DNA of 61,035 nt from positions 1 through 61,035 of the IMG/VR virus record IMGVR_UViG_3300017729_000002; one strand, written 5' to 3'. Numbering within the stretch: position 1 is the stretch's first letter; each line of letters starts with the position of its first letter. The stretch is from a virus (taxonomy: Duplodnaviria; Caudoviricetes). Positions 1,190 to 54,678 of the stretch are shown here, in pieces. Position numbers and translations under genes: made by a program. The notes under the pieces were generated by a model. The model was not told where the DNA came from. It worked only from the letters and a program-made list of their open reading frames with translations, and made no database searches.

Positions 1190-2317
1190 ATGTCTATTAC
1201 AGCACAACACGAATCGACCTCCCCTATCGTAACCTCTAGCCAGATCGTCGGGCTCGCACAGATTGCATTTGCATCTGGCTCCATGTATCACATCGAGGGT
1301 CAAGGCGGTGGAGGTAAGACCTCCATCCTACAGCACGACCTAGCCACAGCCATGGGCATACCACCCGAGCGTGTCTTCAAGGTCAACTGCTCTGGCTACC
1401 CACCATCAGAGCTGGTCGGCTATGGTATCCCAGACAGCGAGACCCACGATATGTGGTTCGCCCGCCCAGAGCAATGGCCTCATGCCCTCACCGTAGGCAA
1501 GGACGAATGCCTACTCATCCTCGACGAGTTCACTCAGTGGGCACCCGAGGCACAGTCCTTATGTCGCTCACTCTTTGACCCAGTCAATGGCGTCCCGATG
1601 ATCGGCACCCATGAGCTCGGCAGTAATGTCCACATCTGTATCACATCCAACCGTGCGATAGATGGCTCGAGATCCCTGCGAGTTGATGCACCCACATCCA
1701 ACAGGTGCATGACTAACACCCTAGCCCCCGACCTCGATGACTGCCTAGCATACTACGCGAACCAAGGTCTAGCTACCTCACCGTTGTTTGCATTCCTCAA
1801 GTTTACCCAAGGTCTCAATGAGACTGACCACTTCAACCCTGCTATCGGCAAGGGCTGGGATGGCGGACCTCATGCCACCCCCCGTAGCTGGGAGTTTGCA
1901 CTCCGCTATACCAAGGGTCTCAAGCTAGACGCATTCAATCACTCCACCTTGGAGACTGCCATCAAGGGATGGGTCGGCATGAAGGCAGGGTCAGCCGCTT
2001 GTGCTTTCATCCATACCATCAGTGCATACATCCCACGCCTCAAACAGATCAGAGCAGGGCAAGAGTCTATGCCCAACGGTGACCCGTCGGCACAATACTC
2101 CATCGCCTACGCCGCCCTCCGCACAGCTAAGAAAGAGGTCGAGGATCTCGGGGGCATCGCGTCCGACGCGGTGGTCAGTGGCAACGTGGACTGGCTAGTA
2201 GATCGCATCATCATACCTGCCGAGGGTGAGCTAAGAGGCTGGGCATACCGAACTGCCCTAGCCATTGGCATACCCCTCGAGAAGCATGACCGCCGTGCAC
2301 AGATGCAGAGCCTGTAA
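1190..2317 (+). CDS. MoxR/CbbQ-like AAA+ ATPase
   Basis: Walker A GQGGGGKT, Walker B LLILDE, sensor TSNR, NR arginine-finger region, TPRSWE motif. Confidence 0.85.
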   Translation: MSITAQHESTSPIVTSSQIVGLAQIAFASGSMYHIEGQGGGGKTSILQHDLATAMGIPPERVFKVNCSGYPPSELVGYGIPDSETHDMWFARPEQWPHALTVGKDECLLILDEFTQWAPEAQSLCRSLFDPVNGVPMIGTHELGSNVHICITSNRAIDGSRSLRVDAPTSNRCMTNTLAPDLDDCLAYYANQGLATSPLFAFLKFTQGLNETDHFNPAIGKGWDGGPHATPRSWEFALRYTKGLKLDAFNHSTLETAIKGWVGMKAGSAACAFIHTISAYIPRLKQIRAGQESMPNGDPSAQYSIAYAALRTAKKEVEDLGGIASDAVVSGNVDWLVDRIIIPAEGELRGWAYRTALAIGIPLEKHDRRAQMQSL

Positions 2318-2327
2318 CCCGAACCCT

Positions 2328-2356
2328 GCTCCCTGTGATACCGTATCACAGGGAGC
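2328..2356. repeat. Early-region hairpin copy 3 (core 2335-2349)
   Basis: Perfect 14-bp arms GCTCCCTGTGATAC / GTATCACAGGGAGC. Confidence 0.9.
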
Positions 2357-2378
2357 CAACACTAAACTACTACAACCG

Positions 2379-3818
2379 ATGAACGCTACCACAATTCATA
2401 ACGACCTTATCCCACAGGGCAATGGCAAAGCCAACGCCAGCTACGATAGCAATGGCAATGGCATCGTAGCCAAAGCAATGCGCCGAGTCCGCGACCACCA
2501 TGGCATGGCTTATAACAAACTCTTATCACTACGCTGGGAAGCCAGCAACATGACACCGTACGGTGCGACAGATGGCAGACGCCTAGTCCTCAACCCGCAG
2601 GGTATCGACAAGCTATGTCAGACATCCAACCCAGTAGGGTACATGGCTTTCCTCCTAGTTCATGAGGCACTGCACGCACTGCTCAATCATGGCACCAGAC
2701 TCAGCAAGTTCACTGACCACCAGCAAGCTAACATCGCGGCTGACTATGTCATCAATGCCATGATCAAGCGTGCCAACCTAGCTTGTATGCGGGGCGGAGC
2801 TAAGCGACCACCATTCCCCATGATAGCTGGGTGTCTTATCGACGAAGCCCTGTCTGCAGATAAGGAAGTCGAGCAGTTGTATGGTGAGCTCATGTCCCAG
2901 ACCCCCGAGCCCGAGCCCGAGCCCGAGCCCGAGGGTGATGACCAAGGTGATGACCAAGGTGATGACCAAGGTGATGACCAAGGTGATGACCAAGGTGATG
3001 ACCAAGGTGACAGCCAAGGTGACAGCCAAGGTGACAGCCAAGGTCAGGGAACCAGCGGTACACGCACCGACGATGAGATCCTCGGCGATGACTTTGTCGG
3101 GAGCATCAATGGCGAAGACACCTTCGAGCCTGAGCTCGACGAGGGCGAGAGCCCCCGAGATGTGGCCGAAGAGATCGACCGATGCAATGACCGCATCGCT
3201 ATGAATGACCAGATCAATGAGGTCGCAGGTCTCGGCGGTAGCAGTGGACATCTAGAACTTGCTGATCACCAGAATAGAGGTGAGCTCGACACCCCATGGG
3301 AGGACATCATCCGAGACTGGATGACCTACTCCACATATGCTGGCTGGGTCAGCCCATTCAATCAACAGGTCTTCCAAGCCACAGGCATGGTCTCCGCTGG
3401 TCGTGGTGGTAAGTCGATCAACAACCTAGTGTTTATAGTAGACACCTCGGGGTCTATGTGTGGTAGTGCGCTACGTGATATCATGTCTAAGATCCAAGTG
3501 GTACTCGACGAGTTACAACCCCGTAGCACAGCCATCATACCATGTGACCACACTGTGCACACGGTGCATGACGTAGAGCTCGGGGGCTTTGTGCCCCGCA
3601 CCCTAGAGGGTGGGGGCTGGACACTCTTCCAGCCAGCCCTCGACTATGCTGAATCACACTACCCTAACTCAGATGGGATAGTATTTCTTACCGATGGGTA
3701 CGCTTCAGATCTACATAAGATCGAAGAGCCCACTGCCCCAATCCTATGGTTGACCTACGGTCTGACCGAGGACCAATATCCTTTTGGCGACGCCATCAAA
3801 GTTCGTTTGTATGACTAG
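2379..3818 (+). CDS. DUF2201-like protein: N-terminal zincin metallopeptidase plus C-terminal VWA domain
   Basis: ATDG, HEALH and NIAADYVIN in the N-half; acidic linker; MIDAS VDTSGSM, GGGWT and LTDG. ATG 2379 preferred over the TTG at 2265. Confidence 0.85.
   Translation: MNATTIHNDLIPQGNGKANASYDSNGNGIVAKAMRRVRDHHGMAYNKLLSLRWEASNMTPYGATDGRRLVLNPQGIDKLCQTSNPVGYMAFLLVHEALHALLNHGTRLSKFTDHQQANIAADYVINAMIKRANLACMRGGAKRPPFPMIAGCLIDEALSADKEVEQLYGELMSQTPEPEPEPEPEGDDQGDDQGDDQGDDQGDDQGDDQGDSQGDSQGDSQGQGTSGTRTDDEILGDDFVGSINGEDTFEPELDEGESPRDVAEEIDRCNDRIAMNDQINEVAGLGGSSGHLELADHQNRGELDTPWEDIIRDWMTYSTYAGWVSPFNQQVFQATGMVSAGRGGKSINNLVFIVDTSGSMCGSALRDIMSKIQVVLDELQPRSTAIIPCDHTVHTVHDVELGGFVPRTLEGGGWTLFQPALDYAESHYPNSDGIVFLTDGYASDLHKIEEPTAPILWLTYGLTEDQYPFGDAIKVRLYD
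2906..3044 (+). repeat. Coding tandem repeats (GAGCCC)n, (GGTGATGACCAA)x6, (GGTGACAGCCAA)x3
   Basis: Directly visible; encode the EPEP and GDDQ/GDSQ linker. Confidence 0.95.
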
Positions 3819-3826
3819 TAGTAAGG

Positions 3827-3865
3827 CCTTGTCTCCACGTGATACCGTATCACGTGGGGGCAGGG
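3827..3865. repeat. Early-region hairpin copy 4 (core 3839-3853)
   Basis: 19-bp stem with three G-T(U) wobble pairs around the identical core. Confidence 0.9.
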
Positions 3866-3927
3866 TAACTACCTAACCTCAATCACAATAACCCCACCAA
3901 TTAACACCAACAAAATAAAACAAAACA

Positions 3928-4143
3928 ATGACACTAGCATTATTCATTATCATTACACTTGCCACATTCGTAGTATTATTCGCATACTCCTTGTCCACGA
4001 GCAAGCCACAGCAGACCCACCCCGCACCACGTCAACCCAAGTGGATCGAGTCTTGCCAAGTAGCACTACTAATTACCACAGGTGTGGGCTTCGGTCTTAC
4101 CTGCCTGACCTTGGTAGTCGCAGTAATTATATCAATCTCATAA
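3928..4143 (+). CDS. Small membrane protein with 2 TM helices
   Basis: Two hydrophobic segments; A/C-rich leader. Confidence 0.7.
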   Translation: MTLALFIIITLATFVVLFAYSLSTSKPQQTHPAPRQPKWIESCQVALLITTGVGFGLTCLTLVVAVIISIS

Positions 4144-4156
4144 CCTAACTAAACAT

Positions 4157-4393
4157 ATGACAACGACACAAGTAACACTACCCATCCACATGATTGACAT
4201 CGTGCGGTATAAGAACTGGACTGGCCTCACTGTAGCTGAACTCTTCCACGCTGGGAGACTAGGATCCAATGGATCAGACAAGAAGAACATCGAACGCTTC
4301 GCCCTCCACATGCACCAACCCCGAGACCTAGACGAGCACCATGCTCTCATGGCCTTGGCTAACGATGCATACGAATACCTACTTAACGAATAA
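4157..4393 (+). CDS. Hypothetical early protein
   Basis: In-register ORF in a tightly packed operon. Confidence 0.65.
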   Translation: MTTTQVTLPIHMIDIVRYKNWTGLTVAELFHAGRLGSNGSDKKNIERFALHMHQPRDLDEHHALMALANDAYEYLLNE

Positions 4394-7392: not shown

Positions 7393-10300
7393 TTACTGAG
7401 TCTTCTTTCTTTTGATTACTGAACCCTCGGACAGGAGGTACTTCTTGGGATTAGCATTAATCCATTTGTAAGCTTCCTTAATCCTAGCAAGTTTCATCTG
7501 CTTCTCTTCTTCCGTCTTGGCAGTAGCGATCATCCTCTGAGTAAAGTCAGGTGTCAGGTTGATGCCATCCATGACCCCGTTCATCAGGTTCTTAGTTCTA
7601 CGTTTTGATAACACCTCACTAGCCGTCTGGTAAATGTGCTTGTCAGACATCCCATACTTAGAAGCACCTCGCATCATTCTGATCGCGTGGTTAGACACAG
7701 CCTGTCTGTCCTCATACTCTTCCTCAAATATCTCAACAATGCTTTGTTCAGATATAGGCTTGAGGGATCGGAGTATGTTCTTTCGGGATTTAATATTAGC
7801 AAACTCTCGACGGCTCTCATATAGGTAGTTCGTAAGCTGACGCTCAGGATCAATGGTGTGCACCTTGAACGGTCTGACCGCGCCATATAATATATTCTGA
7901 ACAGAGTTCTCTGGGTCAGTATATACCTCGTCACTCGTAGCCGTCTGATATGCTTTGATCGCACGCTTCAAAATGTCAGGGCTATACGCCTCGTTAAACA
8001 AGAATGTCAATCTCTTGATAGCCGCCTCCCCTGTCGTGTCCGAAACATTCTCGACGATAGGTTTGTTGTTCGTCGGGTCCCTGTTCTCTATGACTGCAGT
8101 CAATGCACCCGCCGCGATCTGTTCATCTAGATACTGATCAACAAACAGACCATTGACTAAGGCCGCGCCCGCTTCACCAAACTCACCTCTGCCCATCTTC
8201 TCAAACGCCCTAACTACAGGGTCTGCGAGTAGAGCATATGGGTTGATGAATGTCAGGTCAATAGTCTTATACTTGTCACCACCTCCGAAGAACTTACTCC
8301 ACTTAGGTGGGATAGATAAGAATGAGTTGCCCCTTAGGTATTCGGGAGCAGTCTCACGTTGGAAGTCCTGCATGTCATCATCCTCGGTACCAGCTATACC
8401 TGCAAGTATAGAAGCCACTAGGCCCATGCTACCAACACCGACCGCGAGCATACCAACCATACGCTTCAACCCGCGAGCCTTGATAACACTACTATCACTC
8501 CTCATCTCCTGATTTGCGAGCTTGAATGTGTTGAACACCACCCTCGGAACCTCAGCCTTGAATCGGATAAAGGGTGCTACTAAAGCACCGATGCCATGTC
8601 TCGCTATGTCTTTAACAATAGGAGGAGCTTGGCTAGATGACTGTGCTGTCATCAAAACTTTATCCCGTGCCATTTGTTTGAGGTCCGAGTCAGAGTAGTC
8701 AGCGAATGAGCCACCTTCCTTCTCGGCCTTAGCCTTAGCTTTACGTAATACTTTAAGCTCGTTCTCGTAGTAGGCTATCTTATAGAAGCCGTCCACTGCA
8801 CCAGCCATCCGAGTGGCTACTTTATAAACCTTACCAAACGTAGCCTCCGTACCCTTAGCCGCAGCCTGAATTAATTTATTCTGCTCACTGATAACATCAG
8901 ACAAGTTACGGGTACCATCCAACATGTCCTTCATCAGCGTGGATCTTAGCTCATTATCAATAACACCCAGTGCGGACAGCTCCGTTAAGTAGGCGTCCAT
9001 CCTGTTCGGATCTTTGAGTTCGTCCCATACATACTTGGTCTTAGCAATCATGGATGCCCCGTTAACAAACCCTTGGGATGGCCCGAAGAACACGATGTTT
9101 GATAACATGTTTCGGATATAGAAACCTATCGAGCCTAATGTCTTAGTAGCCATAGACAAACCAGATGCCTGTCTTAGTGTGGATGTCATGAACCCAACTA
9201 CTTTTTCTGAATCGGTGTCGGTCTCGGTATTGATGTCAGACTTGAACAGTTCGACTAGCCCCTCGCGCACATGCTTTGGTGCATACATCCCACGGAGTGG
9301 GTTGTTAGCGGATGTCTTCTTGGGTGTGACCGCGTCCCAGTCTTCGTAGGCTTCGGGGTCTTTCTTCCGAGCGGCCTTCAGTTGCTTAGCCGTCATTAGG
9401 AATCCTTCTTTCTGACCCATCTTCTGGATGTTTGAGAACATAGCCTGATTCGCCGCCATGGTAGACACGGTTAGGAAGGTACGCACTAGGTTGTCTACTG
9501 TAGCTTCAGTACCAACCTCACCAAGCAACGCCCGTAGTCGGGGGTCTAGGTCTTTCTTCTCTTTGAGATTATCTTCAAGGATCTTAGCATCATCATTACT
9601 GACAACGTCATTCTTACCTGCTCTCTTATACTGGGCTAAGAACTTATCCACTTCGAGCTGACCCATGGTCTTCAGACTATCGGGGCTCTGCTCTTGGAAC
9701 TCTGCCTCTACAATTAGATCAGCTTCCTGAGGGTTGAATACCAGACCAGCGTTCTTAGCTTGCTCACGCAACTCGTCTCTTCTCTTTAACTTGAGATCCT
9801 CAATGAAATACTTACCAGCCTCTTCCCTTATGCCCGCATACTCAGGTGAATTACTAGCGTGCTCATGGAATCCAGTCTCAGTAAACATACGATACTGAGT
9901 GGTCAGGTAGATACCTTTCTGCACATCGAAGTGTGCTTTCATACCCTCGTCCATACCATAGAGATCCTTCATCTTCTCTTGGATAGGTTCGATCAACTCA
10001 GACCTAATATCCCGTATGGTCTGTGCCAACTCAGGAGATACCTCCTCAAGTTCAGCCAGAGCCTGAGTTTGCTCAGCTATAATTTGCTTGGCGATAACTT
10101 GTTTCTCAGCTAATAGCTTACCAAACTTATTATCAGCCGCTATCTGCTCGTCTAGTTTCCTCTCCTTTGTAGACTCATAAGTTGTCTGGGCAATGGTGTC
10201 TAGCTCTGCTTGATACTCGTCCTCGATCTCTTTGCGTCGTTCACGTGGGACAATCGCACTACGACCAATGGCCTTGTTGAGACGAGCAGTGTCCGAGCTA

Positions 10301-13300
10301 TCTAGCTGGTCACCATATGCTTCCTTCATGAGGCGATCAAACTTAGTCTTGAAACTGTTCGCTGTTTTCTCAGCCGCGTTCCTAAAGAACTGACGATTCT
10401 GAATCATACGCTCTATCCTAGGATCTAGGGCGCCCTTTAAGATTCTGCCAATTAAACTAGTCGGGGCATCATACCCACCTGTGGCATAGAACGGTAGCTC
10501 CAGCTGGTCAATGAACCCTGAGTAGTCCATCTTGTCTGGGGTAAATCCTTCGGACGGAGCGATAGCTGACTGTAATCCCAAGCTCCTACGGAACCTGACA
10601 TCCTCAGCTGTTTGCCCATATATCTTGTTACGGTAGCGGTTAATGATACCTTGGTCACTTGGCGATGTTATCTCCCAAGTCTCATTCCAATTATCATCTT
10701 GGATGATGTTGGCAAAAGCCTCGGTAGCACTATCAAAACCAAGATATTCCTGCCGCTTTAGTGCATTGCGAACTGACTGTGGCATCCTTTCCAAGTCCCC
10801 CCGCACTGCACCAGACATCAGAGCCTCCCCCATGAACTGCTCATCGTATTGATTAGGATTTCCAATAGCGGATTGGAGTCCACTTGTTCTAGGTGCGTCT
10901 TCAGTCTCCATGACCCATTCGGGGAGGAGGCCAATCTTCTGATCTGCAAAGATAGTTTCTTCACCCGTGGCCGTTTGATTAAACTCACCATAAGGACCAT
11001 AGTTCACCCAGCTGTTTTGTGCTCTGGTTTCTGTAGTTAGTGCTCTTCTCGCCGCCTTGGAATACATTGTAGAATGAGACCTCCATGCATTCTCTTCACC
11101 ACGTGCTCTAAATCCTACACCATTTCGGATGTGCCCGAAGTAATCATGTACTGCTCTAAATATATCATTTGCTAGTACTTCTCTGCCACCCCATGTATAT
11201 GGACTAACTTCTAGGAGTGGGTTATCTGAAGGGTCAAATCCACTATCAGAACCAAACCCGTCTTTAGTTCCAAAAACATACATGTGGTTGTTCTCAACCA
11301 CATCTAGTATTGCATTTCGAGGGTTCTTATATGGGTCTTTACCCGAGGGTGCAAACTCTAACTTAACTCCCGCCTCAATCATTGCATCATACTGAGCATA
11401 CGTCTCAGCGATTAATGCTTGATATGCCTCGGCTACTTCAGGGTCCGATGGGTTGTGTTGTAGTTTATCAAATGCTCTTGCAATCCTCGCCGCCCTCTTT
11501 TCATTGACTGGGGCATAGTATGATATAGGAGTTTCCCCAATACCTGTCTGTTGCTGGTATTTTTCAGCAACATCTTGCGCGGGTTTGTACCCAGTAAATA
11601 TGGTAGGAGTCCCATCGACCCTTACTGTGACTGGGAGCCCTTTGAGGTGACCCCCCGCGTCCCCGCCGTACGAATCTTTTGCACCTCCAACCACGAGATC
11701 TTCTCTTCGTTGTCTTGGGAGAGGGGCTCCGATTGCTGATTGAAGACTTCGTCCATCAGTATATCTGCGGGCGTCCTCTCTAGTTCCTTCGCGCTCACCC
11801 TCGACGCGTTCAGAAACCTCTCCGCGTCCTCTGGATTCGATGTAAGACTGGACACCTGTTCCGAGCTTAGCTTGTTTGTATTCTTTTTCATGTGTTCTTA
11901 ATGTTTGTTTTTGTGAAGTTGATAATACCTCGAGATCTAGGGTCTGGTCAAATAAATATAATCTTTCTTTTTGTAAGAACTTAATGATTGCCCGACCCTC
12001 AACAAATGTACGAGGTGGCCTATCCTTCGGATAAAAAACATCAGCCGCGTCATCAAAGCTAGACTTGAACGCTCCTGTTTCACCAGTCCACCCATTCTCA
12101 TCCCATGTTTGTTTCTCACCAAACCACACCACCGCCTGAAGATCGTCGGGAGACATGTTTAGTTTCTGGGCTGCTTCTCGGAACACTATCTGACCTAACG
12201 CGAAGTCTTGGTTTTTAACTCCCGTCTCTGCTTTGGGGATAATTCTCCACCTCTTTGTATTACCCGCGTATAAAATTCGGCGTAGAGTCCGTGCCGCCCA
12301 CACATCAATGGTGGCTTCAAGAGACTCCCCACGTAAGTTCATTGCAAATTGTGGTGTCTTAGGTGCTTTTGTATTTTCCCGCCACACTCCAGCAAGCACC
12401 CGCAGAGATGGCATACTATTTTGGCCAAACTTCTTTGTTGCATCATACGACTGGGTCAAGGTCATCCCTGACCGATCCACCCATCGCTCTACAATATCCT
12501 GTGCTTTGACAGTCTTGGCTTGTTTTGCGGTAATCACCTGACGCTTGACGGCTTCGGACACGAGGGTTCCCGCATTGATAATATCATACAGTTCTAGGTA
12601 CTGCTTTATGTTTGAGTCAAACTCACCTGATTTATACCTCTGATAAATTTCAGCGGCATATATAAAGTTTTGTTCGACCCCTGTGTTAGCAGACGTAGCT
12701 CCGAGTAAGTTAGTAAATATTACAAGATCTTCTTCTGTGAATATCTCTTTTAATCTGGATTGCATCCGAGTGTACCACCCCAGTCCCGCCGCTACATCGG
12801 GACGTTCCATCATTTTATTAGTCTCCTCAACGAGACGTTCAACCGCAGCATCGACAGCACCACTATCAATTAGTTTTTGAATGTCTTTACGCCCCCTTGG
12901 ACCGACTTCGTAGTGGAGGGAGTCATAGTCTAAAGGTTGTGAATAAGGCTGGTCTTTTTTAGGGGCGGTCTTAAAGAAGGGAGCGCCTATTAAGTTATAT
13001 TGTTGATTCTTAGGCTCTCCTTTGGCGTTAAGAGGAGTTACAGTAATCTCTTCTCCATACTCACTTGGCTTAGCATACCCATAGTTCTTAGCTATACCAG
13101 CTTGTAACCCGTCGGATCGAGTAAGGAACTCTTCTGGATCAGTAGTCAAACCTTCCTCAAGTTTGTCCGCGAGGACAGCCAAGCCTTGGTCTGGTCGTGT
13201 TGGGTCAAATGCAATAGATGATTCCTGAGTCCTGTATCCTGCTTTGATGGAACGTAGTTCGTGGATCAGGCTATTGACTGCCGAGTCCATGAATCGGTTA

Positions 13301-16300
13301 CCCTCACCGTTGTTAAGCTCCTTCTGGAACTTACGCATTTCAGCCATTCGTCGGAAGTATCCACTAACATAGCGGAACATGATCTTCATTAGCGATGGGT
13401 TGGTGCGGTAGAACGCCCAGTCTTGTTCTGTTGTAAAGCCACTAGTCAGAACTTCCATACGCATACGTAGGTGCTCTTCGGTTAGCCTAGCCTTCAGGTC
13501 CAGTAAGTCAGCCTGACCTTGTTCATCGAGATCGGTCGCACGAATCAGGGCAAGGGCTTCAGCGGCTTGCTCAGGTCGGTCAGCATAGTATGACTCAACG
13601 ATCTCTTCATACATGTAGTCAGGCAGGGTGTCAGCTAACTCGTCTATCTCCTCTTGTGTAAGTGTGTTAAAGGAAGCAACGTGACTTAGCTCATGTGACA
13701 TGACCTTTGCTACGATTAGTTTCGATGATGCTAATCCGAGGTCCTGAGTGAGGTTCATAATGAACGCGGGGTTGACTACAACCACACCGTCGCGGAACTC
13801 AGCCGCAGCATTGATGGTCCGATCAATTTCCAGCGGCACCTCTGGGGGGACTAACTCCCTAGCCACGCGGAGGAGAGCCTCTGCTTTTTGTTGAGCCTCA
13901 CTAATCTGAGCTCGGTTGGTTACGCCCTCCGTGTCAGTATCAACTTCCGTGAGTTCTGACACCAGCTCGTTTAAGTCTTCTGCCGCTTTTTGTGCTATTA
14001 GTTCATCCTCAGTAAGCTCTACGTCTTGCTGTGCCTCAGCCAATGATGGATCAGAGTATACAGCGGGTACACCAGTAGCTTTAAATGCGTCCGAAGTCGC
14101 CTTCATGTTTGCAGTAACCTCTGCGACTACTCGCTTGGCACGGGTCTTAGACCTAGGATCACTCACTGATACTGTTGACTGAGCTAAGTCAATCACGTCC
14201 GTCAGCGCATCAGCATACTTAGATGCCTCCTCAGTTGTCACGCCTTTACCGAAGAACTTAAATATAGAATCCATGATCTTACGGAAGAAACCACGACCAC
14301 CTTTATCAGCACCTAAACCTTTAATCTCTGCTTGGAGTTCTGGGCTTAGCATTATACCAGCCACAAACTCGTCCATGTTAACTAAGGAGTCCATCAGAGC
14401 GCTGTTGGATCGGTAACCAGCGGTACTAGCCGCCTCAGATATCTCTTGTCTTAGTGCATCGAGCCGCGTAACCGCATCCAGTTGGGCTGGGGTCAGTGTA
14501 GAACGTGGCTGGCTAAGGACTTTGGTCAGGGTAGCGTGTACATATTCCTCTAGGAGTACGTTGGATAGTCCGCGACCGTTGTGCCCATCTAAGTTCAGGA
14601 CGACTTCTAGACTTCCATCTGTCATGGTAGTCTGCATCCCAGCGAATGGCAGGTTCGCGCTAATGATTGTGAACTTCACATCACGTACCAATTCCACGTT
14701 CTCTAGGATCAGATTTGCAACTAACTTATGTGCAGTTGTCCCTGTCTCAGCAATCTTTTGAAGTGCACTTACGACACTATTTGAATCCCCAGACACCAAG
14801 CCTAGTCTTTCAGCTTCAGCTTGGTTAGCGGCCCTAGCAATCTTACGTTGTGACTCAGCAATGCGGGATCGGGACTGGTTCTTTTTGACGACGTTCCTTG
14901 CGTTGGTGTTGTGGTCTTTGTTCTGCCGTGGCGTGCCTGTACGTACGACATTGAACCCTTCAGTAATTACCCTGTATAGGTCAGGGTTGCTGGACTCGAG
15001 ACTTCCTAAAATTGTCTGTAGATTTTTACTACCTACGTTTTGATCAAGAGCTCGTTGGGTCGTCTCAGCGATCTCCTTGGTCTCCATCCTCGATATTACA
15101 TTAGCGGCATCTTGGGAACCTCCCGCTAATTCTGTAGCCAGATCTACGAGTATGGCTCTAGCTTCATCACTCTCATATAAAGATTCAGCTACGTCGCTAT
15201 CTTGATCAATAGCATTATTAGCCTCATCACGGCTTACGGGATCTGTGCTAACAGCTGGTATGGATGTGTCCGTATCCTCGTTAAACTGCGATCTCTCCGC
15301 ATTGTTCTGCGTGTCTCTAACCCTCTTAGCTTTCTGCTGCTTCCTGAAGTTATCGCTAGATAGCTGAGCAATGAAACTCATAGGAGGCATCGTATTCTCC
15401 TTTAACAAGGGGTGGTTAACTATTTCTTGTAAAACAAAGTTGGTAGTTCTTTTTGGGAAGCTACTACCAGCAGTCATAGATGACACTTGTTTCAGTTGTT
15501 CGTTTAACTTAGCACCCGTGAGCTCCCTATACCTAGTCTGCTCTACGAAAGCTTGAATTAACCTGCTTCGGTTAGTTGCAGTGTCTTGCCTCAGTTGTAA
15601 ATTCCCTGTTGGCTTTCCCTCTTGGTCTACCTCAATCGTCCCGTCCTTATTTAATTTAGCAGTTAATAGTTTACCGACAGGACCGTCGAGAATGTTCTTT
15701 CTAGCAACGTATGCATTAGCGACTAGCATAGTCTCAACTACAAAACGCTGTGATGCAGCATCAAAGAAATCACCTTCGAGCGGGGCTACACCTTTACGGT
15801 TCATTAGGTTCTTCAACGTACCACGAGAAGAACTTTTTTCAGGATCCGAACTCATCGCGTTACTGATGAACGTAGTTACGTTGTTGATGAAATCCCCAAC
15901 CGTAAATACTTCACCATCTTGTACTTTGGATTTTGTTCCATCAGCTTGAGGAGCTTCGTCTATTTCTAATGGGGTTCCATAAAACGACTGATCAAATAAG
16001 CCAGCCCCCGCTGACTTCTTTAGTAGTATGTTGTAGTTGGCTTGTGTGGACGTTACTTTATCTGGATCTGATCCATCCTGAAGCATACCCTCGTTCTCAT
16101 TATTTACAGACAGCACACTAAGGACTCGCCTTGTGTCTGGGTCTGCGATGATAGAAGGGTTTAGTTCCACGCCCTTAGGGACGATTACAGTCTTACCTGC
16201 TTTGAGGTATTCCGCTGTAAGTACAGGGTCATTGTCAAACACGCCACGACCACTAGAGTCTAGGAATCCTTTGACAGGAGCTCCCTTTGAGCTAGACATC

Positions 16301-19300
16301 TTTTTGGTGTGCGGGTTGTAATGCACCTGCTTACGACCCTCAAATACTTTACCACCCTCTGGCTCAGTGAGTGGTGTGATGGGCCACGTGTCATAAATCT
16401 GACGAGCCACCTCAGTAGATACTCTGGGGTAGTAACCTTTAGGTTTCTTGGAATACTCGAAGCCTGACTTTGTTTTGGCAGTTACGCGTGACGGGAAGCC
16501 AGAGGCCACTAGTGTGTCAAATGATACTTGGTCTTCCTCAGTATTGAGAAACTCGAGTATCTCTGTTACTGGAGCTTCAGCAGTACCTGCTTCCATGGGG
16601 ATGTCAATGTCCTCCTCGGACTCAACGACACGACCCTCCTTGTCTAGATTGATCAGCATCTGTTCATTGACCTCTTCTAAGTCTACCCCCTGTTCAGCCG
16701 CTTCTTCAATCTCTTCGGGGGTGACTGGAGCCAGCGCATCAATATCAGCTCCACGGACATTAGTTTCGTCCCCTAGGTTCAGCTCTTGTTGAACTGCTTG
16801 TGACTCCTCTTCGGTAAGGTTGTCTAGTATGGGAGCCGATTTTACGATTACCTTTTCTTCAACCTGTTGCCGCTCAAATAACTGTAGCTGAACTTCTTCA
16901 AGCGTTCTTTCAACCGACTCTGGGTCTACATTACTGTCCAAATTTTCTAGGGTTGCTCCCACTAGCTCAGACATAATTGGCATCCCGACCCAGTCACTAG
17001 TCGCAGGATCTCTGACACCGATAACATAGTTCTCTAAGTCCAGCATGTAGTCTGCATCGGGACCCTTCAGGAGGTTCTCCTCAGCCTCTTCAGGTGTTAA
17101 GCGTCCCGCAAGAGCACCTTCGCCCTCTTGGTTGAGCCAGTCTGCCATGCGCTGACGTGTACCCACTTCATCTAATGTTACGTCATTAGACTCAGGGAAA
17201 CCTACAATGTTTCCATCCTCATCTTTTGTTAGTGTTCCATCCACAACAGCCTCGGCTATTTGTAATGAGCGAAACAACCCCGATGTCTCCGCAGGATCGA
17301 CCTCTTCAAACAATTTGTATTGATCATCTGTCATCTCCTCTTCGACGAGATAATCATAACGCGCTTGTTGCTCCTCATTTAATTGAGCTGAGTCAGACCC
17401 TTCGGGCGTAAACCATGAGTTCAGGGGGAGCGTAGTCAGTTTATCTGTATCGTGTGATAACTTCTGACTTTGAGATCTAGGATCTTGTGGCGCGGGGGTA
17501 GTAGTGTCAGCTTGAGGGGCATCAGGATCTAGCTTAAGGGTATCCTCGATCTCTTTCACCCTTTGAAGTTGATCTGGTTTGAAGAAAGTTTGCTCTCGTG
17601 CCAACTCTTTAATACCGTTCAGTTCCTCTCGAAGTTCATCTTCTCGAGCTTTTTGTGCAGCTGGACCCGCTAAAGGTTTTGGAACAAATGGGGCTGGTTC
17701 GCTAGGTGCCCCCTCCTCTGCCGACGCTGCTGCTTCAGTAACCTCAGGTGTAGCACTAGGATCTAACTCTTGTGTCAGCTTAGCCCTAGCCTCATCAGCT
17801 CTTTTACCTCGAGCAGGACCTGTCAATATATCACGGACCACTTGTCCAGTAATTGGTGCGGCCGCTGTATCTAGTTCTGCGACGACATTGTCTACAAAAT
17901 CGAGCTCTAACTTCGCTTGATCTCTACGTGACTGTTCACGTAAACCAGATCTACTTGCTAACTTTTGGTATGCCCCCATACCACTACCAATGATGCCCCC
18001 AGTCAGACCTGCTCGGTAAGCTGATTCTAATCGAGCCATTCCATCAGTGCTCTGGTCAGTGTAGTAGTCAGTGATGTAAGAGTTAACGAACTCATCTAAA
18101 CCCTCCTCAAGGGCTTCCGAAGTAAACCCATCAAATGCTTCGCTGACAATATTCTTCTGACCCGCAAACTTCCCAGCGTTCTTAGCCATGTCTTTGTGGA
18201 TTTTGCCCACAGCATTCGCGAAGATCTTCACTGAGTCTTCCGACCCAAGTTTGACCCTAGACCCTATGTTGCCTAGCCGCTCCACGACACCTAACGCTTC
18301 CCGCTTGGTCATTCCTTTAATGAATGCATCCTCGATACCACCCTTACCAATGGATCTGAAGGCCTTCATAATACCAATGGTGGAGAATCCAGATACTATC
18401 CCAGATCCGAAAGCCCTATCATGCTTCTCTTCGTGAGACATGTCAGGATTCATCTGTGTGAGTGTGTCATATGTCGCAGCATAGTTAGCACCCGCAGACC
18501 TAGTAAATGCGGGGGTATTGATTGCGGCGTCTTGCGTCCACTTATTGGAAGCTATCTTAGCAAACGAATCAATAGCTCCCATGGCACCTTTCTTGATCTC
18601 ATCCGTAGCTGGCTCTAGGATGTAACCATCCTTAACTAATCTCTTCAACGCTACCTCCGAGGACTCCTCTACTCCATCCACAACCAAACGCTTAAAGGGT
18701 GAGTTCAAGGTCATACTCTTAACAATACCTTTAGTCAAAGACTTAGTGGTCAGTTTGGCTCCCTGTTTAGCTGCGATCAGCATTGCACCACCAGCGCCAG
18801 TAGTTGCAGTTAGTGCAGCGGTCGCTGCCATGTCAGCAAAGACAGGTCCAATAGTCTCCGCCACATCTTGCCCTATACCAAATTCAACACCAAACAATCT
18901 TGCTCGCTCACGGCGTTGGGCATTGCGTTGGTTAGCTTCGATAAGTTGTTCTCTGGCCCACTCATTACCAGCCATTGCCATTGGTGCTGTCACCATCGAA
19001 ACAAATCCCTGTCCCCAAGCAGCTCCTACACCCTTAGCGCGTGCTTCAAATTGACTGTAGTTGTCTGGATCAGAGAGAAAATTCTCCAATATAACGTGGT
19101 CCTTAGTGCCAGCGGCCCTACCTTCTTGCAATGTACCTAACCATTCCTCAGCATCAGCGCCTTTGCTAAGCAGCTCATTGGCTGAGTCAAAGTTTTGAGC
19201 AGACATCGCCTCACGGTTGGCTCTAAGCTGAGCCTTATCCGCTTCAGTAAGATCAGTGTTTGCATTAATAGCCTCTTCAAACTTAGCGACGTTGGAGACA

Positions 19301-20565
19301 AGTGAGCGGTGCATCTGAGCAGGACCATAGCCGTACTTCTTGATGTTCATCCCTATCTTAGTTGGGTCGTCCTGCAATTTGAACTGCCCAGAACCTAATA
19401 ATTGATCGCCAGCGCGTTGCGTCAACACGGTTTTAAATTCATCAAGATCCATGTCCATGCTACCGAGAGCAGGGTCCATAGAACTCATGGTGCTGTAGAT
19501 TGACATGGTCTCATTATTGATGAGCTTCTCTAATCTCTGCACATTTTCCTTATCGTCGTCTATGACTGCCTCGTCATACGACTTGTATAATTTAACAAAT
19601 CTGTCGAACTGCTTTTGCGAGACTCCTTGTTGTTCCGAGGAACCACTCTTAGTCTCCTGTGTAGGAGGTGCTATTAACTCAGCGTCGAGTATACTGTCAA
19701 CCATATCACCCAGTTCTTGTTTACGGATGATATCATATGTGGGATTACTGAAGCCATCAGGCGTCTCGAGTTGCTTGGAAATATGAGCGGCATCCTGCAA
19801 GGTAACACCATATGGCTTAGATACATCAATGATCTCTTTAGCATTCATGCCTTGTGCAGCTTTTCCAATCTGCACATATGAAGTACCATCTTCTCGTCTA
19901 ATACGAGCTGCCGCTACGCGACCGTCTAAGAGTGCGCTCTTAGCTGCGTTGTCATAAAGCTTGGTTTGCAAGTATCCCTCCGCCTTGCTTTTCCAAAATT
20001 CAAGGTCATCTTTAATTTCTTGGTTTGCCTCGGTAGCCTCTGGGTCAGTTGCCATTGAGTTAGCAAAGGCTTTCTGTTTGGCACGATAAGTGATCACGTC
20101 TTCCCATACCTGTTCTGGGGTAGTGTCCTCAGGTAAATTGTCTAAGTTGTTAGCAGCGATTGCTGTAATCTCAGCTGATGGGGATTCCGCTATGAGCTTA
20201 AGACTAGCCTCTGTAGATAGCTCAGGCGCAGGGAATAGCTTTGCTGTGTTGACTTCATCCCCATCCTCGGGGTTGACTAGACCTCTTTGTACAGCCGCGC
20301 CGTAGAGTGTGTTCCTTAGATCCTGCTCAAAGCCAACCGTGGCTTGGTTTTTTTCCGCGTGCTTCCCTCTAAGATAATCCCCGTAATTTTGCAAATCACC
20401 CAGCTCGTCACCACTAGCATTGTTTACATTCCAGTCATCGAAAGAGTCAAACTCAACTTGCTCAGGAGGAACCGTAGGTTCTTCTGTTGCTTCTGGGTTA
20501 GTAGCATCATTAAGGTGTCCCCAAGGGGTCGGCGATATCGGAGCGAAGGATTTGACGTCAGGCAT
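7393..20565 (-). CDS. Giant (4390 aa) polyvalent internal virion / ejection protein
   Basis: Last gene of the internal-protein cluster; Gly/Ala-rich N-terminal helices; zincin-like EEYVH, HELSH and HDYFGH motifs; TIDVW domain; helical C-terminus resembling podovirus ejection proteins. Confidence 0.75.
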   Translation of the reverse strand: MPDVKSFAPISPTPWGHLNDATNPEATEEPTVPPEQVEFDSFDDWNVNNASGDELGDLQNYGDYLRGKHAEKNQATVGFEQDLRNTLYGAAVQRGLVNPEDGDEVNTAKLFPAPELSTEASLKLIAESPSAEITAIAANNLDNLPEDTTPEQVWEDVITYRAKQKAFANSMATDPEATEANQEIKDDLEFWKSKAEGYLQTKLYDNAAKSALLDGRVAAARIRREDGTSYVQIGKAAQGMNAKEIIDVSKPYGVTLQDAAHISKQLETPDGFSNPTYDIIRKQELGDMVDSILDAELIAPPTQETKSGSSEQQGVSQKQFDRFVKLYKSYDEAVIDDDKENVQRLEKLINNETMSIYSTMSSMDPALGSMDMDLDEFKTVLTQRAGDQLLGSGQFKLQDDPTKIGMNIKKYGYGPAQMHRSLVSNVAKFEEAINANTDLTEADKAQLRANREAMSAQNFDSANELLSKGADAEEWLGTLQEGRAAGTKDHVILENFLSDPDNYSQFEARAKGVGAAWGQGFVSMVTAPMAMAGNEWAREQLIEANQRNAQRRERARLFGVEFGIGQDVAETIGPVFADMAATAALTATTGAGGAMLIAAKQGAKLTTKSLTKGIVKSMTLNSPFKRLVVDGVEESSEVALKRLVKDGYILEPATDEIKKGAMGAIDSFAKIASNKWTQDAAINTPAFTRSAGANYAATYDTLTQMNPDMSHEEKHDRAFGSGIVSGFSTIGIMKAFRSIGKGGIEDAFIKGMTKREALGVVERLGNIGSRVKLGSEDSVKIFANAVGKIHKDMAKNAGKFAGQKNIVSEAFDGFTSEALEEGLDEFVNSYITDYYTDQSTDGMARLESAYRAGLTGGIIGSGMGAYQKLASRSGLREQSRRDQAKLELDFVDNVVAELDTAAAPITGQVVRDILTGPARGKRADEARAKLTQELDPSATPEVTEAAASAEEGAPSEPAPFVPKPLAGPAAQKAREDELREELNGIKELAREQTFFKPDQLQRVKEIEDTLKLDPDAPQADTTTPAPQDPRSQSQKLSHDTDKLTTLPLNSWFTPEGSDSAQLNEEQQARYDYLVEEEMTDDQYKLFEEVDPAETSGLFRSLQIAEAVVDGTLTKDEDGNIVGFPESNDVTLDEVGTRQRMADWLNQEGEGALAGRLTPEEAEENLLKGPDADYMLDLENYVIGVRDPATSDWVGMPIMSELVGATLENLDSNVDPESVERTLEEVQLQLFERQQVEEKVIVKSAPILDNLTEEESQAVQQELNLGDETNVRGADIDALAPVTPEEIEEAAEQGVDLEEVNEQMLINLDKEGRVVESEEDIDIPMEAGTAEAPVTEILEFLNTEEDQVSFDTLVASGFPSRVTAKTKSGFEYSKKPKGYYPRVSTEVARQIYDTWPITPLTEPEGGKVFEGRKQVHYNPHTKKMSSSKGAPVKGFLDSSGRGVFDNDPVLTAEYLKAGKTVIVPKGVELNPSIIADPDTRRVLSVLSVNNENEGMLQDGSDPDKVTSTQANYNILLKKSAGAGLFDQSFYGTPLEIDEAPQADGTKSKVQDGEVFTVGDFINNVTTFISNAMSSDPEKSSSRGTLKNLMNRKGVAPLEGDFFDAASQRFVVETMLVANAYVARKNILDGPVGKLLTAKLNKDGTIEVDQEGKPTGNLQLRQDTATNRSRLIQAFVEQTRYRELTGAKLNEQLKQVSSMTAGSSFPKRTTNFVLQEIVNHPLLKENTMPPMSFIAQLSSDNFRKQQKAKRVRDTQNNAERSQFNEDTDTSIPAVSTDPVSRDEANNAIDQDSDVAESLYESDEARAILVDLATELAGGSQDAANVISRMETKEIAETTQRALDQNVGSKNLQTILGSLESSNPDLYRVITEGFNVVRTGTPRQNKDHNTNARNVVKKNQSRSRIAESQRKIARAANQAEAERLGLVSGDSNSVVSALQKIAETGTTAHKLVANLILENVELVRDVKFTIISANLPFAGMQTTMTDGSLEVVLNLDGHNGRGLSNVLLEEYVHATLTKVLSQPRSTLTPAQLDAVTRLDALRQEISEAASTAGYRSNSALMDSLVNMDEFVAGIMLSPELQAEIKGLGADKGGRGFFRKIMDSIFKFFGKGVTTEEASKYADALTDVIDLAQSTVSVSDPRSKTRAKRVVAEVTANMKATSDAFKATGVPAVYSDPSLAEAQQDVELTEDELIAQKAAEDLNELVSELTEVDTDTEGVTNRAQISEAQQKAEALLRVARELVPPEVPLEIDRTINAAAEFRDGVVVVNPAFIMNLTQDLGLASSKLIVAKVMSHELSHVASFNTLTQEEIDELADTLPDYMYEEIVESYYADRPEQAAEALALIRATDLDEQGQADLLDLKARLTEEHLRMRMEVLTSGFTTEQDWAFYRTNPSLMKIMFRYVSGYFRRMAEMRKFQKELNNGEGNRFMDSAVNSLIHELRSIKAGYRTQESSIAFDPTRPDQGLAVLADKLEEGLTTDPEEFLTRSDGLQAGIAKNYGYAKPSEYGEEITVTPLNAKGEPKNQQYNLIGAPFFKTAPKKDQPYSQPLDYDSLHYEVGPRGRKDIQKLIDSGAVDAAVERLVEETNKMMERPDVAAGLGWYTRMQSRLKEIFTEEDLVIFTNLLGATSANTGVEQNFIYAAEIYQRYKSGEFDSNIKQYLELYDIINAGTLVSEAVKRQVITAKQAKTVKAQDIVERWVDRSGMTLTQSYDATKKFGQNSMPSLRVLAGVWRENTKAPKTPQFAMNLRGESLEATIDVWAARTLRRILYAGNTKRWRIIPKAETGVKNQDFALGQIVFREAAQKLNMSPDDLQAVVWFGEKQTWDENGWTGETGAFKSSFDDAADVFYPKDRPPRTFVEGRAIIKFLQKERLYLFDQTLDLEVLSTSQKQTLRTHEKEYKQAKLGTGVQSYIESRGRGEVSERVEGEREGTREDARRYTDGRSLQSAIGAPLPRQRREDLVVGGAKDSYGGDAGGHLKGLPVTVRVDGTPTIFTGYKPAQDVAEKYQQQTGIGETPISYYAPVNEKRAARIARAFDKLQHNPSDPEVAEAYQALIAETYAQYDAMIEAGVKLEFAPSGKDPYKNPRNAILDVVENNHMYVFGTKDGFGSDSGFDPSDNPLLEVSPYTWGGREVLANDIFRAVHDYFGHIRNGVGFRARGEENAWRSHSTMYSKAARRALTTETRAQNSWVNYGPYGEFNQTATGEETIFADQKIGLLPEWVMETEDAPRTSGLQSAIGNPNQYDEQFMGEALMSGAVRGDLERMPQSVRNALKRQEYLGFDSATEAFANIIQDDNWNETWEITSPSDQGIINRYRNKIYGQTAEDVRFRRSLGLQSAIAPSEGFTPDKMDYSGFIDQLELPFYATGGYDAPTSLIGRILKGALDPRIERMIQNRQFFRNAAEKTANSFKTKFDRLMKEAYGDQLDSSDTARLNKAIGRSAIVPRERRKEIEDEYQAELDTIAQTTYESTKERKLDEQIAADNKFGKLLAEKQVIAKQIIAEQTQALAELEEVSPELAQTIRDIRSELIEPIQEKMKDLYGMDEGMKAHFDVQKGIYLTTQYRMFTETGFHEHASNSPEYAGIREEAGKYFIEDLKLKRRDELREQAKNAGLVFNPQEADLIVEAEFQEQSPDSLKTMGQLEVDKFLAQYKRAGKNDVVSNDDAKILEDNLKEKKDLDPRLRALLGEVGTEATVDNLVRTFLTVSTMAANQAMFSNIQKMGQKEGFLMTAKQLKAARKKDPEAYEDWDAVTPKKTSANNPLRGMYAPKHVREGLVELFKSDINTETDTDSEKVVGFMTSTLRQASGLSMATKTLGSIGFYIRNMLSNIVFFGPSQGFVNGASMIAKTKYVWDELKDPNRMDAYLTELSALGVIDNELRSTLMKDMLDGTRNLSDVISEQNKLIQAAAKGTEATFGKVYKVATRMAGAVDGFYKIAYYENELKVLRKAKAKAEKEGGSFADYSDSDLKQMARDKVLMTAQSSSQAPPIVKDIARHGIGALVAPFIRFKAEVPRVVFNTFKLANQEMRSDSSVIKARGLKRMVGMLAVGVGSMGLVASILAGIAGTEDDDMQDFQRETAPEYLRGNSFLSIPPKWSKFFGGGDKYKTIDLTFINPYALLADPVVRAFEKMGRGEFGEAGAALVNGLFVDQYLDEQIAAGALTAVIENRDPTNNKPIVENVSDTTGEAAIKRLTFLFNEAYSPDILKRAIKAYQTATSDEVYTDPENSVQNILYGAVRPFKVHTIDPERQLTNYLYESRREFANIKSRKNILRSLKPISEQSIVEIFEEEYEDRQAVSNHAIRMMRGASKYGMSDKHIYQTASEVLSKRRTKNLMNGVMDGINLTPDFTQRMIATAKTEEEKQMKLARIKEAYKWINANPKKYLLSEGSVIKRKKTQ

Positions 20566-25075: not shown

Positions 25076-25081
25076 TAAAGA

Positions 25082-25110
25082 TTGAATACATTGTAAATAC
25101 CAAGTATACT
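25082..25110 (+). promoter_or_regulatory. sigma70-type promoter, apparently leaderless
   Basis: TTGAAT-17-TATACT-7 nt-ATG(25118). Confidence 0.65.
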
Positions 25111-25117
25111 CCAACCC

Positions 25118-41903: not shown

Positions 41904-43075
<1,172 letters not shown>

Positions 43076-43136: not shown

Positions 43137-43838
43137 TTATATATCGGCAAATCTGCGCCCAACGCCCCCATTGTAGAGATAGTCGGCAGTCGCTTGAGCC
43201 TCAGCATCGTTAGTCGGAGCCGCTTCCCAATGCCCCAGCATGGCAAATTTGCAAGGATGATGATTGGTTCCCCAATTTCTACCTAATCGCAGGGGTCTGC
43301 TTCTTGTGCAGACCGAACAGCTGTAGTTAGAATTTGTTCCTTGTGATACACCATCAACATATGCTCTCAATGTAGTGCCGTCATAACTCACAAGGTAATG
43401 CTTCCACCCATCAGCGACGTATTGCTTGGTAATTAATCTTCCTGCTTCGTTGTGTATACTAACAGCCTGATCTGTATTGCTTGTAGATCTGCCGATCATC
43501 ATCATGGTGCCATTTACTGCGGTGTTTCGCCAACAAAACCACGGCGTGTATCTAGGGGCTTCAATAACAAACTTTACCCATGCACTAATTGTAACAGGCG
43601 CAGTCCCTGTGATCGTTTTGCTAAGGGAAGTTGTTGCGCTAGTAACGGTGCAACCACCTCCGTCTGGGGCTGTGTTTGATTCTATAACAGTTGTCCCCCC
43701 CACATCAACCATGTTTCTCAAGGAGTCAATGCTATTGGTGTGTGCTGAATCATCCAGATCCCAGTAATTAGTAGGAACCCCTAAAGGAAAACCACCGCCT
43801 CTTTTGCTAGTTAATGATATTGGGAACTTCAAACTCAT
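43137..43838 (-). CDS. LamG / concanavalin A-like domain virion protein
   Basis: TISAWVK, WKHYLVSYDGTTLRAYVDG, LYNGG. Confidence 0.85.
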   Translation of the reverse strand: MSLKFPISLTSKRGGGFPLGVPTNYWDLDDSAHTNSIDSLRNMVDVGGTTVIESNTAPDGGGCTVTSATTSLSKTITGTAPVTISAWVKFVIEAPRYTPWFCWRNTAVNGTMMMIGRSTSNTDQAVSIHNEAGRLITKQYVADGWKHYLVSYDGTTLRAYVDGVSQGTNSNYSCSVCTRSRPLRLGRNWGTNHHPCKFAMLGHWEAAPTNDAEAQATADYLYNGGVGRRFADI

Positions 43839-52277: not shown

Positions 52278-52390
52278 TGTTTTAGGTTGTTATAGTTGTT
52301 GTATTTAATGTGCCTGCCAAATACGACAGACAACGAGGTTCGTGTATCACGTATGATACCCATTTGTCTTTTTAGGGACGGTTACCTTTA

Positions 52391-52502
52391 AATAGAACTA
52401 CTTATGGCTAGAGCGACCGACGGTATCCGAAATATGTAGGTGAGATAAAACTCATGTAACATACCAAGCATAATAGAACTACTTAAGGCTAGAGCAACCT
52501 AC
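52391..52502 (-). repeat. 31-bp direct repeat (2 copies, 3 mismatches) in the capsid leader
   Basis: AATAGAACTACTTAWGGCTAGAGCRACCKAC at 52391-52421 and 52472-52502. Confidence 0.9.
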
Positions 52503-52520
52503 CTGATTTATTACGCCCCC

Positions 52521-52549
52521 ATTTAAACAAAAAATGAATGGAGCGTCAA
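52521..52549 (-). promoter_or_regulatory. Putative promoter for the capsid gene
   Basis: TTGACG-17-TTAAAT about 240 nt upstream of ATG. Confidence 0.45.
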
Positions 52550-52566
52550 GGTGCAATGTAAAGTGC

Positions 52567-52619
52567 CAAGACAGGTGTGGGGAATAATACTAATACACAA
52601 AAAAACCACACCTGTCTTG
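52567..52619. other. 14-bp perfect inverted repeat after the scaffold gene
   Basis: CAAGACAGGTGTGG / CCACACCTGTCTTG with a 25-nt loop. Confidence 0.7.
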
Positions 52620-52661
52620 ACTAACCACAAACCGCGGGGACACTACAACCCCATGTGGAAA

Positions 52662-53870: not shown

Positions 53871-53888
53871 GGTTTATAGGTGTTGTGG

Positions 53889-54206: not shown

Positions 54207-54238
54207 GTGAAAGATCTTACGTAGTAATATCAGAATGT

Positions 54239-54667: not shown

Positions 54668-54678
54668 GTGATCGTGGG

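Follow-up and report, generated by a model that had tools for sequence, protein, structure and literature searches.

The question raised by this locus is why a single giant phage protein should carry the same short peptide four times, once at each joint between its parts, and what this peptide might do there. The stretch analyzed, hereafter the window, is the complete phage record IMGVR_UViG_3300017729_000002 of IMG/VR (Duplodnaviria; Caudoviricetes; 61,035 bp), and the protein, hereafter P0001, is encoded by a minus-strand open reading frame (ORF) at 7393-20565, whose 4390 amino acids (aa) account for about 21% of the genome. A sequence-only reading of the window had noticed four LQSAI-type motifs, and all of them were recovered in this one ORF, on the minus strand: junction 1 (GLQAGIA, aa 2486-2492, 13090..13110), junction 2 (SLQSAIG, aa 2940-2946, 11728..11748), junction 3 (GLQSAIG, aa 3229-3235, 10861..10881) and junction 4 (GLQSAIA, aa 3330-3336, 10558..10578). 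They share the pattern [G/S]-L-Q-[S/A]-[A/G]-I-[G/A], with one copy per joint, and the same reading was also right in that an arginine precedes each motif closely (2-5 residues upstream of the leucine in every copy) and in that the segments between the motifs measure 454, 289 and 101 aa. We refer to these segments as cassettes A, B and C (slots 1, 2 and 3; 11749..13089, 10882..11727 and 10579..10860, respectively). They lie between an N-terminal backbone (aa 1-2485, 13111..20565), which is collinear with the homologous proteins P0002-P0005 in blastp and holds no junction motif according to a motif scan, and a C-terminal backbone (aa 3337-4390, coordinates 7393..10557 with the stop codon), which junction 4 opens and which has conserved counterparts in 2397 cluster representatives.

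A six-frame scan of the 61,035 bases with the loose pattern LQ[SA][AGSR][IVY] gave 4 matches, all of them in the giant ORF and all of them also fitting the strict pattern LQ[SA][AG]I[GA]. For the latter, 0.0038 copies are expected from the length and composition of the protein versus the 4 observed (Poisson P for at least four copies ~9e-12, a generous value, as the pattern was defined post hoc from its own matches), and 1989 of 2000 residue shuffles lacked a strict copy, while the remaining 11 contained a single one; the scan counts and the shuffles thus rule out a chance origin of the four motifs. The codons vary among the copies (Leu TTA/CTT/CTC/TTA, Ser TCA/TCC/TCA, Ile ATA/ATC/ATT/ATC), junctions 2 and 3 agree at 14/18 nucleotides (nt), and an IUPAC DNA pattern matches just two. 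Since the four copies differ in codons, they are not a DNA repeat, and the conservation is at the protein level, as had been proposed from the sequence and as is also borne out by the changes at junction 4 described below, which are synonymous only. The first two segments had in addition been said to look AT-rich; both GC content (0.454 in A and 0.471 in B vs 0.494 and 0.482 in equal-sized flanks) and third-position GC content (GC3; 0.41 and 0.37 vs 0.48 and 0.52) are lower than in the flanks, yet the claim holds in part only, segment A lying about 1.8 standard deviations under the gene mean for stretches of the same size.

Where do the four peptides stand with respect to the folds of the protein? 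Two AlphaFold2 models, built from alignments of 56 and 62 sequences, place all of them in stretches with a predicted local distance difference test (pLDDT) score below 50 (model residues 301-333 for junction 1, 300-329 for junction 3 and 404-461 for junction 4, with junction 2 in such stretches in both models). Between them lie the confident folds of cassette A (aa 2540-2917, nt 11815-12948) and cassette B (aa 2963-3223, nt 10897-11679), both at pLDDT 81-98, whereas cassette C is modeled as a small helical domain (aa 3254-3327, pLDDT ~59-72). With all four peptides in these low-scoring stretches, burial of the motifs inside folded domains is ruled out by the two models; the junction peptides are predicted to sit in flexible linkers between the cassettes, that is, at domain boundaries, as the idea of cassettes bounded by motifs would have it.

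The cassettes themselves are self-contained. Cassette A carries the DUF7178 domain (PF23802, aa 2591-2815, E 7.8e-10, 39.4 bits vs a gathering cut-off of 27), the sole family recognized in P0001 by the Pfam scan, and cassette B corresponds to an unnamed and widespread phage domain (phrog_3170); the PHROGs scan of P0001 gave two families of unknown function, one in segment A and one in segment B, and the NCBIfam scan gave 0 families at E<=0.01. Free-standing or short homologues were collected for both, 67 of 249-795 aa for cassette A and 867 of 158-506 aa for cassette B, some on contigs of 40-315 kb and most others on contigs of 1-5 kb, where they are possibly fragments, and the Atlas clusters nearest to A and B consist of viral proteins of matching size, either unnamed or DUF7178. 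Neither cassette has a PDB sequence match below E 0.1 or a PDB fold match at E<=0.001 (0/60 and 0/84). Cassette B has 21 BFVD fold matches at E<=0.001, in phage polyvalent proteins including LPD and ART-PolyVal-like ones, and more than 40 residues, among them His, Asp and Glu, are invariant across 56 sequences, so that it may be regarded as a candidate new enzyme family. Its conserved core can be written FRAVHDYFGH...GEENAW...ETRGQNSW and belongs to no Pfam family. Hence, of the suggestion that the first two segments each hold one self-contained enzyme-like domain, the first half is upheld by the folds and the short homologues, and the label "enzyme-like" is plausible.

If the motifs bound exchangeable units, then the content of homologous proteins should change exactly at the motifs, and this is what the relatives of P0001 exhibit. 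A search with aa 2300-3500 of P0001 gathered 133 giant proteins, many of them with ART-PolyVal or LPD Pfam domains. Among the 120 giant matches listed, cassette B is present in 115 and cassette A in 18, on other backbones and in other domain orders, and the C-terminal backbone is common to just 7. Many of the giants with cassette B carry PF18760, PF18857, PF18823 or PF18834, and DUF7178 co-occurs with PF18760. On the backbone of P0001, four architectures were found: A-B-C (P0001, P0002, P0003 and L005), A'-Methyltransf_23-C (P0004), A'-methyltransferase-GNAT-like (L003) and A'-C, from which B is absent (P0005). Here, A' is a DUF7178 allele too divergent for a blastp match to A and present in P0004, P0005 and L003, and the module that replaces cassette C in L003 has 155 aa and a weak GNAT match (E 0.0036, below the cut-off). 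In blastp, P0001 and P0004 align over aa 1-2519 and 3221-4390 with nothing between, and P0001 and P0005 over aa 1-2519 and 3229-4386.

The breakpoints are even sharper at the DNA level. Compared with L003, the window is 94% identical up to aa 2483, three residues short of the first one of junction 1, the identity is then lost, and it is back, at 95.7%, from aa 3330, the first residue of junction 4. Between unrelated neighbor cassettes there remains an isolated island of 42 nt (95% identity, ~nt 10853-10894), centered on junction 3 and encoding PRTSGLQSAIGNPN. At junction 4, the match to the DNA of L003 sets in again with the Ala-Ile-Ala codons, and the Leu-Gln-Ser codons differ synonymously; since the identity resumes in the middle of the motif, the crossover occurred inside it and LQS came with the incoming cassette. 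The peptide LQSAIA is the same at this junction in the window, L003, L004 and L006, with synonymous differences in 5/6 codons and no replacements, even though the backbone of L006 is only 54% identical. Moreover, both slot-1 alleles are found on both backbone subclades, A' being 83% identical across them and the C-terminal backbones 73-74%, and therefore the cassettes have moved between backbones. Taken together, the four architectures and the DNA breakpoints confirm that the motifs bound cassettes and that domain content changes at the motifs.

The tail of the incoming module is worth a remark of its own. The GNAT-like cassette of L003 (L003:4211-4696) ends in MIPLSQRFDSTSRSILQS, and in many lineages (many of the proteins numbered P03xx) the junction peptide follows a conserved tail of the form (V/I)IPLS(E/Q)RFD-x5-7-[IL]-x-[YFQ]-[ST]. 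By its sequence, the IPLS(E/Q)RFD tail appears to link the LQS version of the junction to the LYS, RFS and RYS versions of other lineages.

A further question concerns how far the junction peptide extends beyond the close relatives of P0001. The profile search with the C-terminal backbone that gave the 2397 cluster representatives (50%-identity clusters) provided, among the best 150, 62 giants for testing; these are at least 2400 aa long, and their C-backbone anchor lies no more than 25 profile positions from where the profile begins and 60 residues or more into the chain. In P0007 and P0010 the anchor was misplaced, and the two were excluded from the 62 and inspected by hand. The peptide preceding the C-terminal backbone recurs upstream in 17/62 giants at p<0.05 as judged by shuffles (about 3 expected) and in 12/62 at p<=0.01. 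Exact copies comprise LQSR[YF]G three times in P0321, LETRFG three times in P0323, GTSFGD three times in P0311, LYSELG twice in both P0351 and P0363, R[FY]TQAG twice in P0357 and R[FY]SQFG twice in P0376; at the looser similarity threshold of the repeat test, several of these proteins have four to five positions. LQSR[IY]G stands twice in P0007, at homologous joints. The two LYSELG copies of P0363, at 3514 and 3754, flank an ART-PolyVal domain (3557-3729), and Pfam scans of P0321 and P0323 found no domain. The second protein inspected by hand, P0010, has a junction peptide of the form [EQ]VL[AIG][ST]-x-A-[DE] in exactly three copies (aa 2099, 2226 and 2675), at joints only, the first two being separated by one more small module. 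When the variants are put together with GLQSAIG, a consensus of about [L/R]-x-[S/T]-x-hydrophobic-G is obtained, and these comparisons suggest a family-wide junction signal of this kind, uniform within a protein and differing between lineages.

A single universal motif does not account for the family. The pattern LQ[SAT][AGSR][IVLY] is not enriched in the 120 giants that share a cassette (37 matches vs 12-29 in 20 shuffles) and is confined to P0001-P0005 and P0007; a generic motif, [IVLM]x[FY]S[RKMLVI], is not enriched either (157 vs 188.6 +/- 9.9 in shuffled sequences). The pattern D[IVL]x[FY]S occurs 59 times vs 31.6 +/- 4.4 after shuffling, but the reversed form of this pattern, used as a control, is slightly raised as well (43 vs 31.4 +/- 6.0), and we regard its enrichment as a lead only. 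Near-duplicates had been removed from the regular-expression test (183/219 kept), as well as from the flank test discussed below (79/110 kept).

What, then, might the peptide be for? The location in predicted flexible linkers, the presence at every border, the uniformity within a protein together with the variability between lineages, and the fact that residues are kept and codons are not fit a peptide that is read by a co-evolving partner, the simplest candidate being a site-specific protease. That the junction peptide is a cleavage signal is, in our judgment, the most likely reading, at about even odds. On this reading, the giant protein would be packed into the capsid, a protease reading the junction peptide would cut the linkers, either in the head or after ejection, and the cassettes would be released as separate proteins, putatively with effector roles; with the same peptide at both ends of a cassette, crossovers inside it would yield in-frame and correctly punctuated chimeras. 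Because the peptide is shared by all cassette ends, the joints are also safe points for cassette exchange, and this role in recombination is real whichever reading holds, as a consequence of the design. It is possible, and we propose it only tentatively, that the whole family, with its 2397 clusters, uses a "junction code" of six residues read by a co-evolving phage protease, the peptide being both a cut site and an in-frame crossover point, in a polyprotein processing that would resemble that of RNA viruses and would supply the host cell with a mixture of recombinable effectors.

Several observations, including those on the HELSH region given further on, weigh against cleavage or against its generality. 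In 45/62 giants there is no significant repeat of the junction peptide, the flank test on the carriers of domain B was significant in only 10-11/79, and no prohead-protease-like gene was recognized among the 20 other ORFs scanned. In addition, the virion RNA polymerase (vRNAP) of phage N4, a member of the polyvalent class, is described in the passages devoted to it as packaged unprocessed, its metallopeptidase region being needed for encapsidation (PMC5512222). One might imagine that the peptide is a protein-level signal for something other than cleavage, either a docking or packaging tag recognized on the capsid interior, the portal or a chaperone, or a hinge that orders unfolding and threading, and that the chain stays whole. 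The linker position, the protein-level conservation and the concerted variants fit any tag recognized in trans, no protease was matched to the peptide in the family and fold searches, and N4 vRNAP is packaged uncut. However, a docking tag would have no reason to be present at all module borders, those with the two backbones included, or to arrive together with each new cassette, as happens with the ILQS tail of the GNAT-like module, and the passage of an uncut 480-kDa multi-domain chain through a podovirus-type tail would seem harder than that of fragments; on balance, we consider this explanation unlikely. It appears a little less probable still that the peptide by itself does nothing for the protein and is the footprint of exchange, a joint sequence carried by the cassettes and kept for the sake of in-frame recombinants, as has been suggested for boundary sequences in mosaic phage genomes. 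In line with a footprint, the crossovers map in or beside the motif, the junction 3 island persists between genomes with unrelated neighbor cassettes, and the DNA of this island agrees at 38/42 nt with that of L004, the gene of which is 74% identical overall, a point that counts against cleavage and also fits the recombination role; furthermore, cassettes carry their own tail, that of the GNAT-like module of L003 (IPLSQRFD...SILQS) being of a type common in other lineages. Nevertheless, the four copies share the peptide and not the DNA, as the 14/18 nt of junctions 2 and 3 illustrate, and DNA homology therefore cannot explain the same peptide at all joints; the peptide of each lineage is internally uniform, and junction 4 changes only synonymously.

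If, on the other hand, the peptide is cut, what does the cutting? The sequence-only reading had proposed self-processing by a zincin of the HELSH type. This motif (aa 2291-2295, 13681..13695, minus strand; hereafter site 2) is present, as an HExxH motif alone, 196 aa upstream of junction 1, so that every junction lies downstream of it, and a degenerate HExxH site, EEYVH, precedes it (site 1, aa 2006-2010, 14536..14550, minus strand). The two sites have degenerated reciprocally: P0001, P0003 and P0005 keep site 2 and have EEYVH at site 1, P0007 has an intact site 1 (HELVH) and NEEIAH at site 2, and P0010 has an intact site 1 (HEYIH) and no site 2. Each of these proteins thus retains exactly one intact HExxH, and the junction peptide differs between the groups, which are three lineages only. 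An autoproteolysis in cis with a hydrophobic P1' residue, for instance LQSA|IG, would agree with these data and with the hydrophobic residues (I, Y, F, L or A) that the various lineages have at motif position 5, a hydrophobic P1' being usually preferred by thermolysin-like zincins. Autoprocessing was, moreover, predicted for the class by Iyer et al. in 2017, in the passages dealing with its metallopeptidases (PMC5512222). Yet the zincin fold finds no support in any search or model: the HELSH region has no match in Pfam, NCBIfam or PF18818 (MPTase-PolyVal) and no PDB fold match, the PF18818 model has no match in the whole window genome, and the AlphaFold2 confidence at HELSH is low (pLDDT ~46-49). 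In addition, 5/15 motif-bearing lineages examined (P0351, P0363, P0348, P0378 and P0340) have no HExxH anywhere, which speaks against self-processing by an in-cis HExxH zincin as a rule for the family. A zincin-like MPTase domain is frequent in polyvalent proteins but is no requirement for belonging to them. The motif is where it had been reported and its zincin status is not supported; as a special case of cleavage, we rate this cutter as unlikely. A second candidate is encoded elsewhere in the genome, at 2265-3818 on the plus strand, where a DUF2201_N putative metallopeptidase is joined to a DUF2201 VWA-like domain (E ~2e-14 each); it is possible that this protein, which the sequence-only reading had listed as one of a MoxR-like trio, is a trans-acting protease.

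Junction motifs and processed polyproteins are not without parallels. In polymorphic toxins, the junction motifs VENN (CdiA) and DPxGL (Rhs) precede exchangeable C-terminal modules, and Rhs proteins in addition cleave themselves at theirs; such systems have a single junction and a single variable tip, whereas here four junctions stand in series between internal phage cassettes, and there is no sequence similarity. The 3C/3CL proteases of RNA viruses cut polyproteins at sites consisting of LQ followed by S, A or G, which the Leu-Gln-(Ser/Ala) core resembles; however, no Pfam domain of a chymotrypsin-like cysteine or serine protease is present in P0001, and, since Q is replaced by E, Y or F in sister lineages, the fit to Gln-specific cleavage is poor. 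In the head-protease systems of T4 (gp21 acting on internal proteins) and SPN3US (gp245), one phage protease acts, before ejection, on a short motif that recurs in the proteins packaged along with the DNA (PMC10052503, PMC5694885); there the motif is different, and here the peptide lies between exchangeable modules of one chain, in a genome with no recognized prohead protease gene.

The closest framework is offered by the polyvalent proteins. P0001 is one large phage polypeptide with at least three separately folded cassettes and two backbones, and its cassettes belong to a domain network shared with ART-PolyVal and LPD proteins, although LPD Pfam domains have no match in P0001 itself; by architecture and shared domains, as read from the sequence, it belongs to the polyvalent-protein class. 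As described by Iyer et al., polyvalent proteins, which occur in phages and conjugative elements, are very large polypeptides with unrelated enzyme-like domains, much as here, where the cassettes sit beside ART-PolyVal and LPD domains, and they are predicted to be processed by their metallopeptidase domains and delivered with the DNA (PMC5512222). The words "linker", "interdomain" and "boundar" have 0 occurrences in that paper, and the 12 passages covered, of 29 on cleavage, autoproteolysis, processing and MPTase, name no cleavage or junction motif, whereas in P0001 a peptide marks every border and every swap point; no description of a junction peptide was found in that text or in the other literature searched. 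With respect to the polyvalent proteins as that text describes them, the junction peptide is a new element. The NCBIfam family named for a PLxRFG domain is a different matter: P0001 has no match to it at E<=0.01, and P0046, which carries the PLxRFG name, has only cassette B in common with P0001. A string PFIRFK at aa 3998 of P0001 was noticed by eye and is not a family match.

The sequence-only reading had also called the giant protein a virion protein. A tblastn search of the C-terminal backbone against 50,697 phage records retrieved only two phages, Pseudoalteromonas phage vB_Pun_Y3 and Cellulophaga phage phi19:3; in the latter the match is gp129, in two records of that genome, one of which annotates it as "virion structural protein". 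Against a firm placement in the virion it must be said that these matches are weak (20.8-22.7% identity, the distant homology that bears on the virion placement having E 4e-9 at 20.8%). Two giant polyvalent proteins of podoviruses were detected in virions by mass spectrometry, according to the passages reporting them: phi24B gp47 (2811 aa), proposed to be an ejection protein (10.64898/2026.04.10.717836), and JC1 gp69 (4515 aa, Bcep22-like; PMC9144972). As in the window, each of the three proteins phi24B gp47, JC1 gp69 and phi19:3 gp129 is the product of a single giant gene taking up about a fifth of a genome of ~60 kb and is found in, or annotated as part of, the virion; for phi24B gp47 and JC1 gp69, no sequence similarity to this C-terminal backbone is shown, and the passages in question report no junction motifs or fragments. 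Relatives of the class are virion proteins, and P0001 is predicted to be one as well, by distant homology and by analogy.

The remainder of the genome offers few landmarks. Upstream of the giant ORF lie a large terminase gene (23297-25114, phrog_2, E 3.5e-17) and three ORFs with no family match. No close relative of the window was found in the viral contig collection, and the phage collection gave one DNA match with 5% coverage. Three ORFs of 758, 402 and 456 aa in the structural region (50907-56955, minus strand) were guessed to encode portal, scaffold and capsid; they have no PHROG match at E<=0.001, and their only Pfam match at E<=0.01 is a weak, sub-threshold OmpH match on the 402-aa ORF. 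The structural module of this phage is, judging from such scans, very divergent. Amid the genes of this region, there is a sulfotransferase-family gene (42236-43075, minus strand; PF13469, E 1e-14), which is unusual for a phage, and a BspA-type leucine-rich-repeat protein (43835-45067, minus strand; PF13306, E 4e-13) is encoded near a 1226-aa tail-fiber-like protein (46446-50126, minus strand).

What the junction peptide means for this group of phages can be considered at different levels. In the prevailing view, polyvalent proteins are the earliest weapons that a phage or plasmid brings into the cell. In the backbone family of P0001, clean natural swaps at three slots have their DNA breakpoints at the motif, and the variation of the peptide among the members of a very large family is concerted; near-identical genomes that differ only between motifs represent a natural experiment for cassette exchange. 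The junction peptide predicts which exact termini to look for in virion proteomes, as well as the borders of uncharacterized domains, and it supplies a rule by which modules can be delimited in giant phage proteins, thousands of which lack annotation. Finally, if a cleavage site co-varies with its protease in this family, its lineages would constitute a natural set of orthogonal protease/site pairs.

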